Sequence record: NC_019717.1
DNA from: Enterobacteria phage HK225
Length of the DNA: 45,366 bases
Direction: 5' to 3' (one strand)
Shown piece by piece: positions 38,586 through 43,420 of this stretch. The first letter of the stretch is position 1. Every line of letters begins with the position of its first letter. The position numbers were made by a program, and so were the translations under genes. Below the pieces are notes generated by a model that saw only the letters and a list, made by a program, of their open reading frames with translations, did no database searches and was not told where the DNA came from.

Positions 38586-39431
38586 ATGACCAAACTAACC
38601 AAAGAACGCTTGGAAGAAATCGCAGAGCTTGCAAGAAAGGCGACGTACAAGCCATGTGCAATGCACATGACGAATTTATTGGTAGTATGCGATAGCGAAG
38701 TTATCGAGGAAATGGCCCGCCAGTTGCTTGCAAGCATGGAGCAGGAGCCTGTGTCGTACACCTGTAGTGACGCGTTAGATGATGTTTACTGTGGTAGCGC
38801 AGCCATGATGGGGCCCGCTGGCGCTGTGGGAGAAGTACCACTCTACGCAGCACCACAGTTACCGCAGCCAGCGGTGTTATCAGTGTCTGAGGGCGTGCTT
38901 AAAAGCCTCTTACCCGATGTTGAGAAGTCCGAGTTCTGGTTTGAGCATAATGGGAAAATCTTTTTTGAAGGTGTGAGGTTTAACAATGCGGTATTTGAAG
39001 CCTGCCGCGCCGCCATGCTTCAGGCCGAACCTGTAAGTAATAGTGATGAGTTACCGCTGGACTATCTGCAAGGACACAAAGACGGCCTTGAGTGGGCTGC
39101 ACAATTGGCAGAAGCCAATCATCCGCAAACAGGTGACTGGTTGTACGACGACCCAATCGATCTTGCCAGGGCGATTCGCAAAGGTCCGGATATGCCTACT
39201 GTTCAGGGTGGCAACTCTCCGGTGATTCCGGATGACGTACGCCGCATGGACTGGCTGGTATCGAAAACCGTTGATGTTCGTGAGCCTATGGTTTACGGAA
39301 GCCATAGCCTTTTCTGGTCGCAGACCATCACGGATGAAGAGGATGATTATCACGCGACTAAATTACGCGAGCAAATCGATGCGGCTATGGCAGCTGAGCA
39401 GGCAGCTGCACCGCAGCAGGAGGCCGAATGA
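38586..39431 (+). CDS. hypothetical protein
   Basis: 281-aa ORF with GGAGGG SD. Confidence 0.5.
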   Translation: MTKLTKERLEEIAELARKATYKPCAMHMTNLLVVCDSEVIEEMARQLLASMEQEPVSYTCSDALDDVYCGSAAMMGPAGAVGEVPLYAAPQLPQPAVLSVSEGVLKSLLPDVEKSEFWFEHNGKIFFEGVRFNNAVFEACRAAMLQAEPVSNSDELPLDYLQGHKDGLEWAAQLAEANHPQTGDWLYDDPIDLARAIRKGPDMPTVQGGNSPVIPDDVRRMDWLVSKTVDVREPMVYGSHSLFWSQTITDEEDDYHATKLREQIDAAMAAEQAAAPQQEAE

Positions 39432-39763
39432 ACGATTTCGTTAAGCGAATTCAGCGTCTTGAGGCGGAGCGTGGTAAGACCATCACCACTGAGGTGGAGC
39501 TTGTCTCTTACGTCAAAGAGCGCAGCACTAGAAGCTCTGAGGCTCGTTACTACGTTAAGCACAGCAACCAACAGACGGTGCTTGAGCAGGGAATGGTGAT
39601 AAACAGAGATGGGTTTGGTAATCATCAAGCCAGCATCATCATCACTGATTTTCCGGGGCAGAAAACTCCGGAAGACGCGGCGCTCAAACTGGCTGATTGG
39701 TTAAAGCGCCTAGGAGAGTCCATCGAGGCTAATTTCAAAAAGCCAGAGGTGGATGATGCCTAA
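39428..39763 (+). CDS. hypothetical protein
   Basis: 111-aa ORF overlapping the previous stop. Confidence 0.5.
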   Translation: MNDFVKRIQRLEAERGKTITTEVELVSYVKERSTRSSEARYYVKHSNQQTVLEQGMVINRDGFGNHQASIIITDFPGQKTPEDAALKLADWLKRLGESIEANFKKPEVDDA

Positions 39764-39976
39764 CCCATTCGACGCATAACTAAACGTCAAGCAACGTTTG
39801 ATAAAACACTATCAACGAGCCATAATAAATCTGCCAGCGGCCTGAACAACCCTGGCAGACTTCTGCGCATTTAAGGGGACTTAAATGCGACCACAATCTG
39901 AACTCCTCACCTTGTCACAGATGCAGAAATGCACCTGCGATTTTCTGCATTCTGCGGCTTCCGTTAAGGAGGCCGT

Positions 39977-40432
39977 ATGATTATCCCCAAAGACGGCATC
40001 AAGCTACACCGTGGAAATCTTGGTGCTATCACTCAGCATCTGAAGCCACTTCTCGAAAACGGTGAGTGCTTCCGGCTCCAACTCAAAGACTGGCGCGAGA
40101 AGAGAAGCCTTTCACAAAATAGTCTGAGCCACGTTTGGTACAAGGAAATAAGCGACTACCTGATCAAGTCTGGGCGCACTGACGCAACGCCTGCATGGGT
40201 AAAGCGAAACCTCAAAAAAACTTATCTGGGTTATGAAGAGGTTGAGTACACCGATTTCGTCACCGGAATTAAGACGATTGAATTAGAACTCCGCCACACG
40301 TCCGATCTGGACACTGGCGACATGCACCATTTCATGTGCCAGGTGGAAGGCTGGTGCGCTCAGTTTGGCCTGGTGCTCACAATCCCTCAAAGCAGCGAAT
40401 TTCAGGTGCTGCGCGATAAGCAGGAGGCCTGA
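39977..40432 (+). CDS. ninB: NinB-like recombination protein
   Basis: 151-aa ORF; KRSLSQNSLSHVWYKEIS resembles the NinB RNRSLDQN region. Confidence 0.55.
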   Translation: MIIPKDGIKLHRGNLGAITQHLKPLLENGECFRLQLKDWREKRSLSQNSLSHVWYKEISDYLIKSGRTDATPAWVKRNLKKTYLGYEEVEYTDFVTGIKTIELELRHTSDLDTGDMHHFMCQVEGWCAQFGLVLTIPQSSEFQVLRDKQEA

Positions 40433-40602
40433 TGTCAACTCCACTTTCCCGCGTCATCACAAACGAAATCTTTCGCGTTCCGGCGCGCCGCAAGCCTAAG
40501 CCCGCGGTTAAGCCGTCCGATATCCCGACCCTGAAAGACTACACCGCCCGCCTGGTGGATCAGAAATGGCTGCGTCTCGCAGCGAGGAGAAAATCAGCAT
40601 GA
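40432..40602 (+). CDS. small basic hypothetical protein (56 aa, not in ORF track)
   Basis: ATG overlaps the ninB stop, CAGGAGG SD; stop overlaps the phosphatase start. Confidence 0.3.
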
Positions 40603-41267
40603 GCATGTATCAACGAATTAATGGCGCTGACTGGCGCAATATCTTCGTCGTCGGCGATCTGCATGGGTGCTACACGCTGCTGATGAATGAGCTCGAAAAG
40701 GTTTCGTTCGACCCTGCGCGTGATTTGCTGATCTCGGTTGGTGACCTTGTTGACCGCGGCGCGGAAAACGTCGAGTGCCTGGATCTGATTACTATGCCGT
40801 GGTTCAGGGCAGTGCGCGGTAACCATGAGCAGATGATGGTTGATGGGCTTTCAGAGCATGGAAACGTCAATCACTGGCTGGTAAACGGTGGCGGTTGGTT
40901 CTTCAATCTCGACTATGACAAAGAGGTGCTGGCTAAGGCTCTGGTTCACAAGGCAGCTGAGTTACCACTCATCATCGAGCTGGTTACCTCCGATCGGAAA
41001 ATCGTAATTTGCCACGCTGACTACCCGCATAACGAATATGCGTTCGACAAGCCGGTCCCGAAAGACATGGTCATCTGGAATCGTGAGCGGGTTAGCGACG
41101 CTCAGGGCGGCATTGTCTCGCCGATAGCCGGTGCTGATCTGTTTATCTTCGGCCACACCCCTGCGCGCCAGCCCCTGAAGTATGCCAACCAGATGTACAT
41201 CGACACAGGAGCGGTGTTTTGCGGAAACCTCACGCTGGTTCAGGTGCAAGGTGGTGACCATGAGTAA
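40599..41267 (+). CDS. Ser/Thr protein phosphatase (lambda PPase / NinI-like)
   Basis: ATG at 40599 after GAGGAGA; metallophosphatase motifs GDLHG, GDLVDRG, GNHE; 222 aa. Confidence 0.85.
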
Positions 41268-41544
41268 AACCTACCGCAGCAAGAAGTGGCTCGCCGCAGT
41301 CGGGCAGATCGAACGTTGTGTTCTTTGTGGCGCATGGGGAACGCAGGTGGCACACCGGAACGAAGGGAAAGGCATGGGATTAAAAACTGATGACTGTGCG
41401 ACAGCTGCGCTCTGCGTTTGCTGTCATGACAGCATTGATAACGGGAATAAGCTGAACAGGGAAGAGCGCCGGCAGCTTATGGATCGCGCGATTGTTCTGA
41501 CAGTGATTGAAGTTGCCCGCCGCGGGCTGGTGGTGCCCGCATGA
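41260..41544 (+). CDS. Cys-rich nin-region protein (DUF1364-like)
   Basis: ATG at 41260 overlapping the phosphatase end; 94 aa with CVLCG and CVCCHDS cysteine pairs. Confidence 0.5.
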
Positions 41545-41897
41545 AAATTTACGAAATTACGCCGATTGGCAAGCCCAGGATGACTCAGCGTGACCGATGG
41601 CATAAACGGCCAGCAACGGCAGCGTACTGGGCTTACAAAGAACAGGTCAGGTTGCTCGGCATCCGTCTGCCTGAGTCCGGATATCACGTCACGTTCGTTA
41701 TCCCCATGCCAAAGAGCTGGAGTAAGGCAAAGCGGGCGCAATATGTCGGCAAGCCACATCGACAAAAGCCGGACAAAGACAACCTGGAAAAAGCTTTGCT
41801 GGATGCAGTGTTTGACGAGGATAGCCATGTCTGGGACGGACGGGTTACCAAAATCTGGGGAGAAACCGGGCAAATCATTATTGAGGAGGCCAAATGA
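41541..41897 (+). CDS. rusA: RusA-family Holliday junction resolvase
   Basis: 118-aa ORF; RusA-like size and motifs (PKSWSKAKR...KPD.DNL). Confidence 0.75.
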   Translation: MKIYEITPIGKPRMTQRDRWHKRPATAAYWAYKEQVRLLGIRLPESGYHVTFVIPMPKSWSKAKRAQYVGKPHRQKPDKDNLEKALLDAVFDEDSHVWDGRVTKIWGETGQIIIEEAK

Positions 41898-42031
41898 AGC
41901 CAGAAACGCTTGAGATACTCCGCGCGCGCTGGCAGCGCCTTCGCATTTATCGCTACCGGGGATCGGTGCTGGTGGATTATCGCATTCTTCGTAATTTTGT
42001 TCGTATCTATCATTCAGCAGGAGCAGCCTAA
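41894..42031 (+). CDS. small hypothetical protein (45 aa, not in ORF track)
   Basis: ATG overlaps the rusA stop after GAGGAGG; stop overlaps the Q start. Confidence 0.3.
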   Translation: MKPETLEILRARWQRLRIYRYRGSVLVDYRILRNFVRIYHSAGAA

Positions 42032-42846
42032 TGAACCTCGAAAACACCGTGAAATATCACTTCGCCAAGTCGACGCTTATTAGCGACTCTCCGCGCGCCA
42101 CTGGTTCAGATTCGCTGACCGGGACGGATGTCATGGCGGCCATGGGCATGACCCAGGAACGTGCCGCCATGGGATACAGTGCCTTCCTCGGCAAGATGGG
42201 CATCAGTTACAACGATCGGGAGAGGGCGATTGAGTTGCTGTCTGAGTACGCGTTAACCAAATGCGATAAGGTTGCCGCGCTGCGTAAGTTGGATTCCGGG
42301 GTTAAGCCTAAGGTGATGCACCAGTTGGCCACCTTCGCTTTTGAAGATTACTCCCGCAGCGCTGCGAGCGTTAAGCAGTGTGATTGTTGCAGCGGGCAGG
42401 GATTTATTGAGGCCGACGTGTTCACAATGAAATCTCATTATTCAATGAGGATTCCTCAATGGGCGAAAGAGCTTGGTCAGTCACCGAGTGATTTCGAGGT
42501 TAAACGACAGGTTCGAGAGGTGGTTCGAGTGCTGTGCTCGAACTGCAAGGGGAAGAAGGTTGTCAGTTGTGCCTGCAATGATTGCCGGGGACGTGGGAAA
42601 GCCGTAGACCAGAAGGAAACGAAGAAACAGGGTGTGCCGGTTATGACTGACTGCAAGCGCTGCGGCGGGCGTGGATATGAACGCATTCCTTCAACTGAGG
42701 CCCACGCAGCTATTTGCCAGATTACGGATGTAATCAGCCTGGATACGTGGAAGAAGTCCGTTAAACCGTTCTATGATCAGCTGATTACGAAATTCGATAT
42801 TGAAGAGGCATGGGCAGAAAACCAACTGAAACAAATAACACGATAA
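42031..42846 (+). CDS. Q: late-gene antiterminator Q-like protein with four CxxCxGxG-type motifs
   Basis: 271-aa ORF immediately upstream of the late promoter/terminator and lysis genes; CDCCSGQG, CSNCKGKK, CNDCRGRG, CKRCGGRG. Confidence 0.55.
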   Translation: MNLENTVKYHFAKSTLISDSPRATGSDSLTGTDVMAAMGMTQERAAMGYSAFLGKMGISYNDRERAIELLSEYALTKCDKVAALRKLDSGVKPKVMHQLATFAFEDYSRSAASVKQCDCCSGQGFIEADVFTMKSHYSMRIPQWAKELGQSPSDFEVKRQVREVVRVLCSNCKGKKVVSCACNDCRGRGKAVDQKETKKQGVPVMTDCKRCGGRGYERIPSTEAHAAICQITDVISLDTWKKSVKPFYDQLITKFDIEEAWAENQLKQITR

Positions 42847-42865
42847 CGGCTATGGAAGTTAATTC

Positions 42866-42900
42866 CAGCTATTTACTTTTCCCGAATCTGTGTTAATTTT
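42866..42900 (+). promoter_or_regulatory. candidate late promoter (pR'-like)
   Basis: ATTTAC-N17-TAATTT between Q and the terminator. Confidence 0.3.
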
Positions 42901-42931
42901 ATCCCAACGATGGGTTAATGCCTTCGTTTCA

Positions 42932-42967
42932 AGCCCCGCGGATAACACCGTGGGGCTTTTGCGTTTC
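42932..42967 (+). terminator. strong intrinsic terminator (tR'-like)
   Basis: 10-bp stem AGCCCCGCGG-ataaca-CCGTGGGGCT followed by TTTTGCGTTTC. Confidence 0.7.
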
Positions 42968-43003
42968 TGGAGGTAACGGCGAGGCGCTACCCTCGCCTTA
43001 ACA

Positions 43004-43420
43004 TTAAGGGAGGGTTTTCATTACGCTATCAATCTCCCTTCCTTCAAATCTTGAAGTCCAGCCGCAGGAGCCGCAATGGTAAGGAAAGTCATCGAACCCG
43101 CTACCGACCTGTTTAAGACAGTTGGGGCAATAAACCGCGCTGATATACCCACCCGCGGGATTTTTTCTAAAGGCCGCACCCATGTGCTCGACAAACTCAT
43201 CCTTTGCCCGATAAGCCGCTATTTCCTTCTCAAGTTCTACGTTCTTGGCTTTCGCCTCGGCAAGTTCTGCTATGGTGGCAGCATGGGCTTTTTGAAGTAC
43301 GTCGATCTGCTCTCCAATGAAAGCGATGCGCTCGCGCAGGACCTCGTTACTTTGCACAGCAGAAAGCGCGCCGATCCCGTTTTTAAGGGACGCGATAAGT
43401 AATCCTACATCCATGGTCAT
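43004..43420 (-). CDS. hypothetical coiled-coil protein with C-terminal zinc ribbon, antisense to the late operon
   Basis: 138-aa ORF; CPNC...CGSC; ATG overlaps the stop of the upstream minus-strand ORF (ATGA). Confidence 0.5.
   Translation of the reverse strand: MTMDVGLLIASLKNGIGALSAVQSNEVLRERIAFIGEQIDVLQKAHAATIAELAEAKAKNVELEKEIAAYRAKDEFVEHMGAAFRKNPAGGYISAVYCPNCLKQVGSGFDDFPYHCGSCGWTSRFEGREIDSVMKTLP

Follow-up and report, generated by a model that had tools for sequence, protein, structure and literature searches.

Three small coupled open reading frames in the nin region of phage HK225: the protein genes ninE and ylcG, and a probable leader open reading frame in a structured RNA upstream of ybcN

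The nin region of Enterobacteria phage HK225 (sequence record NC_019717.1; "the window" is the whole stretch of 45,366 nucleotides (nt) analysed) contains three very short open reading frames (ORFs), and the question raised by this locus is whether all three are small protein genes. An original prediction, made from the sequence alone, had described them as real small nin-region genes on account of their good Shine-Dalgarno (SD) sequences and their translational coupling to both neighbouring genes. The order of the region is promoter, leader with ylcH/orf33, ybcN, ninE, ninI, a DUF1364/ybcO-like gene, rusA, ylcG and Q; the three ORFs are ylcH/orf33 (ORF1), ninE (ORF2) and ylcG (ORF3). ORF2 and ORF3 can be taken, with near certainty, as genuine genes for NinE and YlcG. 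In contrast, ORF1 is probably less a small protein gene than a leader ORF lying in a structured 5′ leader. The best overall explanation, to which we give a probability of roughly 0.65, is thus that ninE and ylcG are genes and that ORF1 is a translated leader ORF within a leader RNA of four hairpins.

None of the three ORFs is new. All are annotated in the source phage, in Escherichia coli K-12 and in phage 82, they have been known since 1996, and the observation of three small ORFs is itself ordinary. All are shorter than the default threshold of 60 amino acids (aa) of the ORF list from which they were missing, and this cut-off hid three annotated genes. Their coordinates and lengths had been given exactly, and the SD sequences are indeed good: AAGGGGA-N5-ATG for ORF1, GGAGG-N4-ATG for ORF2 and GAGGAGG-N4-ATG for ORF3. 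Overlaps with both neighbours had been claimed for each ORF, and five of the six junctions are correct, i.e., ATGA for ORF1/ybcN, TGATG for ybcN/ORF2, ATGA for both ORF2/ninI and rusA/ORF3, and TAATG for ORF3/Q. The sixth is wrong, in that ORF1 starts 121 nt beyond the end of the preceding gene at 39763. The ORFs were also said to fill otherwise unexplained gaps; however ORF1 covers just 96 nt of a gap of 213 nt, and the remainder includes an RNA hairpin and a predicted promoter. Genes of the nin region, a "chain of interlinked genes", are in general packed tightly through ATGA overlaps (PMC8022706), and coupling in this region is a reliable sign of real genes. A 31-codon ORF is by itself not unusual, with 88 ORFs of at least 20 aa in the 5 kb examined. 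The significance of ORF1 comes from comparative data only.

To compare the coding regions, relatives were drawn from IMG/VR, from annotated records and from a set with a single genome for each species. The ratio of nonsynonymous to synonymous substitution rates (dN/dS) was calculated by the Nei-Gojobori method in the real frame and in the two shifted frames, and a second test used distinct variants among sequences at least 80% identical, where the alignment is unambiguous. Loss of the frames in relatives had been named beforehand as grounds for rejecting the prediction; the frames of ORF1, ORF2 and ORF3 are all conserved. NinE has a dN/dS of 0.25 in frame vs 1.8 and 1.8 in the shifted frames, and YlcG has 0.20 vs 1.3 and 1.6; the controls YbcN and RusA give 0.155 (shifted frames 1.2 and 1.7) and 0.159 (1.3 and 1.7), respectively. 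The distinct variants display 81 synonymous and 75 nonsynonymous changes in NinE (synonymous excess, p = 1e-11), and 46 and 25 in YlcG (p = 2e-11). Thus both proteins are encoded under purifying selection that is specific to the frame. No such selection is detectable in ORF1, where dN/dS is 0.66 in frame and 0.73 and 0.95 out of frame. Its variants have 15 synonymous and 38 nonsynonymous changes, i.e., 28% synonymous vs a neutral expectation of 24% (p = 0.28), and substitutions are spread evenly over the codon positions (44/40/41). The description as real small genes therefore holds for NinE and YlcG, which are both coupled and selected, and not for ORF1, whose peptide is neutral.

What is conserved in ORF1 was then considered at the level of the frame, the peptide and the RNA. 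The translated product matches YP_007112192.1 exactly ("hypothetical protein F845_gp59") and is 64% identical to K-12 YlcH and 77-87% identical to other versions, from the Prokaryotic Genome Annotation Pipeline (PGAP) and phi80. By similarity and position ORF1 is thus a ylcH, without purifying selection on the peptide, and searches of Pfam, PHROG and NCBIfam gave no profile-family match. An ORF1-type frame of 31-33 codons is found in every enterobacterial relative that has the leader element, and the four YbcN loci that have no such frame also lack the whole element. The translation signals are kept. In each of the 10 stem variants of the hairpin H2 (see below) a SD-like GGGGA(C) precedes an in-frame ATG or GTG by 4-8 nt, differences in length are all multiples of 3 (31, 32 or 33 codons), and 73 of 75 contexts have the 4-nt ATGA/GTGA overlap with the start of ybcN. 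Variants share no similarity over the first 10-11 residues of the peptide, and its C-terminal end comes in three unrelated versions that are dictated by SD/anti-SD pairing. A conserved core, SQMQKCTCDFLHS, is widespread, and the core SQMQKCTCD coincides with another hairpin, H3a, where changes are compensatory in the RNA yet alter the residues, e.g., QKC to LNG or TKV. The conserved core is explained by the covarying RNA hairpin. It is very probable that the peptide is not the selected product of ORF1 and that the leader RNA structure is real.

The leader RNA spans about 150 nt (39830-39977) and folds into four hairpins, H1, H2, H3a and H4. Its minimum free energy (MFE) is -62.3 kcal/mol vs -39.6 +/- 3.9 for shuffled sequences (z = -5.8), and homologues that were folded singly form equal hairpins from different sequences. 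A covariance model, seeded on one sub-group, was used to find the leader and to build the alignment; RNAalifold on a plain MAFFT alignment had missed H1 and H2, the arms of which were mis-registered, and the covariance model solved this. The element found by the model occurs once per locus, on the + strand, and always directly before ybcN. A blastn search finds it in 3,018 of the 5,426 complete E. coli genomes (56%). Of the pair cells 96.6% are canonical, where column shuffles give 81.5% and slid partners 32-40%. Both sides have changed in 33 of the 42 pairs, and none of 500 shuffles reaches any of five covariation measures. Frequent G-U pairs assign the structure to the + (mRNA) strand. A covariance scan of 39300-43100 against Rfam 15 gave no match at E <= 1 but a chance small nucleolar RNA match elsewhere, and no description of ylcH as a leader ORF or RNA was found in the searchable literature, with key older papers lying outside it. 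What this analysis adds is that ylcH/orf33 has no protein-level selection and is part of an uncatalogued leader RNA with strong covariation; the leader RNA is a modest new lead.

Table 1. Positions of leader elements, ORFs and neighbouring genes within the HK225 nin region
Feature	Position	Strand	Description	Match or basis
111-aa ORF	39428-39763		upstream of leader; function unknown	phrog_1258, E = 2e-32
Predicted sigma-70 promoter	39798..39826	+	-35 TTGATA 39798-39803, 17-nt spacer, -10 CATAAT 39821-39826	consensus scan 10/12
H1	39830..39859	+	variable covarying stem, conserved loop CCUGAACAA(C); loop 39840-39849	MFE fold
H2 (phi80 IR4)	39866..39889	+	CGCAUUUAAG-GGGA-CUUAAAUGCG	phi80 annotation
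ORF1 (HK225 gp59), 31 aa	39885..39980	+	leader ORF (probable)	homologue of K-12 ylcH (b4588) and phage 82 orf33
H3a	39914..39941	+	GUC-A-CAG-A-UGCA-GAAA-UGCA-C-CUG-C-GAU; inside ORF1	RNAalifold consensus
H4	39953..39977	+	anti-SD UGCGGCUUCC paired to ybcN SD and A of AUG GGAGGCCGUA	folds
ybcN (orf151)	39977..40432	+	gene served by leader	NF007281, E = 1.9e-75; phrog_72
ORF2, ninE (phage 82 orf56), 56 aa	40432..40602	+		PF05322, NF007245
ninI	40599-41267		phosphatase (Ser/Thr)	
DUF1364/ybcO-like gene	41260-41544		HNH protein	
rusA	41541-41897			
ORF3, YlcG family (phage 82 orf45), 45 aa	41894..42031	+		NF033498, phrog_2705, PF26818
Q	42031-42846		antiterminator	PF03589

Each hairpin has its own pattern of conservation. 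In H1, compensatory changes are seen in 11 of 12 pairs, with weak pairing in the outer 3; the hairpin is annotated in the phage 82 record as a "possible regulator-binding site". The H1 loop is nearly invariant and the stem is free to vary, and some loci (L008, L046, L052) have 2-3 tandem H1-like hairpins with a like loop. This suggests that the loop may be the recognition unit for a protein or RNA partner. H2 holds the ORF1 SD in its loop and the ORF1 AUG (39885-39887) in its 3′ arm. All 10 of its pairs have compensatory changes, and across all 48 variants, which comprise 10 unrelated stem sequences, the folding free energy ranges from -13.3 to -16.3 kcal/mol. From these predicted energies it looks as if a given level of stability was selected, compatible with a tuned or temperature-sensitive translational gate.

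In H3a, 99% of the cells are paired, and 29 cells have double changes vs 1 for the alternative hairpin H3b. H3b is the MFE form in the window, and was rejected for its absence of comparative support. In H4, 97% of cells are paired, 6 pairs have double changes, and the three C-terminal versions of ORF1 all keep the pairing; the median free energy is -15.4 kcal/mol (about -15 to -18). Thus the ORF1 stop overlaps the ybcN start and the ybcN SD lies in a conserved hairpin within ORF1, which is the anatomy of a coupled leader ORF. Two other readings of these hairpins were discarded. An intrinsic terminator (tR2-like) does not fit H1-H4, none of which is followed by a U-tract, and the sole terminator-like match is a weak 5-bp stem. 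H1 and H2 (IR4) do not behave as DNA operators, in that their arms vary with compensation, their loops are conserved, and G-U pairs occur only on the + strand.

The mechanism that we propose for the leader is as follows. The leader RNA would begin at or just after the predicted internal promoter, with ORF1 as the first ORF. H2 would show the ORF1 SD in its loop and bury the AUG in a stem of about -13 kcal/mol, such that initiation on ORF1 would be limiting, and H4 would bury the SD of ybcN together with the A of its start codon. A ribosome translating ORF1 would melt H3a and H4, and termination at the UGA of the AUGA could be followed by reinitiation on ybcN. Translation of ybcN, together with ribosome cover against Rho polarity toward Q, would in this way depend on translation of ORF1, restricted by H2. 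For NinE and YlcG, the view with the best support is that they are translated by means of the stop/start overlaps (TGATG, ATGA, TAATG), which hand ribosomes from gene to gene. The anatomy of the leader, its covariation, the neutral evolution of the peptide and the kept translation signals are observed; we infer the translation of ORF1, the dependence of coupling on it, and the activity of the promoter, and hold the coupling mechanism to have somewhat better than even odds.

Leader-ORF coupling with an occluded downstream ribosome binding site (RBS) is found in tap-repA of plasmid R1, in repY-repZ of IncI plasmids and in rpmI-rplT. In such systems the downstream SD is locked in a hairpin that is opened only by a translating ribosome, and the sequence of the leader peptide is unimportant. 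The HK225 leader, judged from its sequence and predicted folds, resembles those of the tap-repA type, with a short upstream ORF that ends at the downstream start and a SD in a hairpin. It differs by two extra conserved hairpins, H1 and H3a. A wider reading, which we advance tentatively as falling a little short of an even chance, is that ylcH/orf33 has been misclassified and is the translated leader ORF of an uncatalogued four-helix RNA that gates the translation of YbcN and, by way of coupling and anti-polarity, the expression of the downstream nin genes and Q, behind an operator-bearing promoter. The leader RNA may respond to a factor for which the recognition site is the invariant H1 loop CCUGAACAAC or H2 with the SD in its loop.

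Among other explanations, the one to be taken most seriously is that ORF1 is untranslated and that the leader is a purely cis-acting RNA, i.e., an operator for a protein or small RNA, a stability element or a thermosensor, with the open frame as a by-product. The absence of amino-acid constraint fits this, as does the position of the AUG inside a hairpin of -13 to -16 kcal/mol; conservation of the H1 loop, with tandem H1 copies in some loci, suggests a binding factor, and YlcH protein is undetected in K-12 (PMC8910356). Openness of the frame is also cheap, as 9 of the 12 sequence clusters have frame +1 open too. However the SD-like loop is accompanied by an ATG or GTG in the very frame of the ybcN junction in each of the 10 independent H2 variants, and the frame-preserving length differences and the 4-nt junction described above argue in the same direction. 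We therefore consider an untranslated ORF1 unlikely. A functional peptide is less likely still. According to the original prediction all three ORFs, ORF1 included, would encode functional small proteins, which makes YlcH an active peptide of 31-33 aa. Its ORF, SD and start are conserved, it is annotated in K-12 (ylcH), in phage 82 (orf33), in HK225 (gp59) and by PGAP (hypothetical protein), and its core SQMQKCTCDFLHS is widely conserved; but the peptide evolves neutrally, its two ends are respectively unrelated and set by SD/anti-SD pairing, the core is H3a with changes that preserve the RNA and alter residues, and no profile family contains it. This reading is thus improbable.

The conservation of the ORF1 region might also be that of a functionless mosaic junction, or recombination "linker", of lambdoid phages. 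The region is 94-97% identical where the flanking YbcN falls to 64-86%, and the boundary of homology between phi80 and HK225 lies just upstream, at about 39747. Divergent versions nevertheless keep all four helices by compensation, with stability in a narrow range; these compensatory changes and the narrow hairpin stability show selection on the leader structure beyond recent exchange, and a linker is very improbable. For ORF2 and ORF3 as chance ORFs in intergenic gaps there is only the small size, to be set against profile matches above curated cut-offs, frame-specific purifying selection, 798 and 219 clusters, and conserved junctions, which leave this explanation practically no weight.

Several points weigh against the leader-ORF interpretation favoured here. 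The AUG from which ORF1 would be translated sits in a stable stem. The evidence from frame openness is weak: the ORF1 frame is open in all 12 clusters, and the remaining frame, other than frame +1, is open in 3 of 12. In K-12 omics data ylcH RNA was detected and the protein was not (PMC8910356), an absence that is softened by how seldom such small peptides are detected. Both the promoter dyad (see below) and the conserved loop of H1 point to a trans-acting regulator. The K-12 operon needs a promoter supplied by an insertion sequence for adequate rusA expression (PMC4118853), so the native promoter and leader are weak or repressed. Fitting the covariation alignment to the modelled structure biases it toward that structure; single-sequence folds and RNAalifold (for H3/H4) independently agree with it. 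Finally, functions given for NinE and YlcG are pure inference, and their AlphaFold2 (AF2) models are small helices without fold matches.

In its practical consequences the leader-ORF interpretation concerns annotation. ylcH is an "uncharacterized protein" in K-12 and a PGAP "hypothetical protein" in thousands of genomes, without protein-level selection, and might be re-annotated, either as a leader ORF or as a cis-regulatory RNA. The leader RNA may help explain the poor expression of the DLP12 ybcN-rusA operon.

The predicted promoter lies within the 121-nt gap before ORF1. In most of 65 distinct loci the motif TTGATT/TTGATA-17-CATAAT/TATAAT is conserved with constant spacing from H1, and the phage 82 record X92588 independently annotates the equivalent promoter as putative. 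The -35 box forms one arm of a dyad, TTGATA-N6-TATCAA (39798-39815), which across loci reads TTGAT(T/A)-N6-(A/T)ATCAA; both HK225 arms carry the A/T variant together. The dyad looks like a putative operator DNA site. Its half-sites resemble FNR half-sites, but the spacing is wrong; in K-12, ylcH RNA was reported to be up about 2 under microaerobiosis (PMC8910356). In many relatives a strong intrinsic terminator, GGCCTCTTCGGAGGCC then TTTCTCTT, is found directly before the promoter, about 40-70 nt upstream of H1 (loci L038, L040, L044, L047, L064, L133, L134 and others); the HK225 window has none. In terminator-bearing loci transcription from pR would have to be antiterminated in order to read through, and nin transcripts may arise mainly from the internal promoter.

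The same architecture with the three small ORFs is found in DLP12 of K-12, ylcH-ybcN-ninE-ybcO-rusA-ylcG-quuD, and an equal order in phage 82, orf33-orf151-orf56-orf96-rus-orf45-Q (X92588; Mahdi, Sharples, Mandal and Lloyd 1996), the record of which has an equal putative promoter, H1 repeat and RBS annotated. An equal leader RNA is detected in both by the covariance model. Unlike these two, HK225 has ninI inserted between ninE and the ybcO-like gene, and ORF1 has 31 codons vs 33; the HK225 Q is from a different family than K-12 quuD. The lambda nin region, like that of HK225, consists of packed non-essential delayed-early genes between the replication genes and Q, with ATGA-type overlaps and NinE. 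It differs in having no YlcG and no ylcH-type ORF, and the covariance-model search found no copy of the leader RNA in lambda. YbcN is a recombination mediator of the Orf/NinB family; lambda NinB is only distantly related to YbcN (PMC4118853).

ORF3 scores 90.9 bits against NF033498 (cut-off 30, E = 2.9e-26) and matches phrog_2705 at E = 6e-28; homologues carry PF26818. It is 55% identical to K-12 YlcG, its exact sequence occurs on at least 1000 contigs, and the family forms 219 clusters at 90% identity. The length is 45-46 aa in 90 of 93 loci, which fits a family of 41-46-aa prophage proteins encoded before Q, and the ATGA junction with the upstream gene is kept in 73 of 76 contexts. The gene that follows ylcG is Q in 89 of 90 loci, where Q belongs to PF03589, PF06323 or PF06530, three unrelated Pfam families; the upstream neighbour is RusA, NinG or others (41894-42846, loci L093-L172). 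This constant position hints that YlcG is linked to the late antiterminator, in function or in expression, and provides a testable handle on the protein. The protein is very basic, with an isoelectric point (pI) of 11.2, and the AF2 model is a helical hairpin with a confidence score (pLDDT) of 67. No match in the PDB was found by sequence or by the fold of the AF2 model, and full-text literature searches on the function of ylcH and ylcG gave essentially nothing.

ORF2 scores 28.9 bits against PF05322 (cut-off 25) and 105.4 bits against NF007245 (cut-off 88, E = 1e-30). It is 100% identical to the annotated NinE of phi80 and 66% identical to that of K-12; the family has 798 clusters at 90% identity, and the exact sequence is likewise on at least 1000 contigs. 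NinE is 55-56 aa long in 90 of 91 loci, and this length and a nin-region position after a ninB/ybcN-type gene fit a family of proteins of about 56-60 aa. The gene before ninE is of the YbcN/Orf type in 84 of 86 loci and the gene after it varies; the upstream gene overlaps ninE by 1 or 8 nt, the downstream gene by 4 or 8 nt. NinE may thus be functionally tied to the Orf/YbcN recombination mediator. It too is very basic (pI 11.6), its AF2 model shows a confident C-terminal helix after a basic, Pro-rich linker, and there was no PDB match by sequence or model fold. The AF2 models of both proteins are of low to moderate confidence. NinE and YlcG are probably accessory factors that bind a partner or nucleic acid. 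Lambda ninE is listed as non-essential (PMC10695390).

The remaining features of the region are minor. Profile searches with the 111-aa ORF upstream of the leader gave no Pfam or NCBIfam match. A 207-aa antisense ORF (41424-42047, minus strand) over ylcG and most of rusA was considered and rejected as a gene; it is a shadow ORF, as its third codon positions coincide with the least variable ylcG and rusA positions. Homology to phi80 (about 95% identity) begins at about 39747, just inside the 3′ end of the 111-aa ORF, and stops at about 41268, at the end of ninI. On this comparison the two limits are typical mosaic joints. The block of ybcO-like gene, rusA, ylcG and Q matches an E. coli YPE10 prophage instead of phi80.

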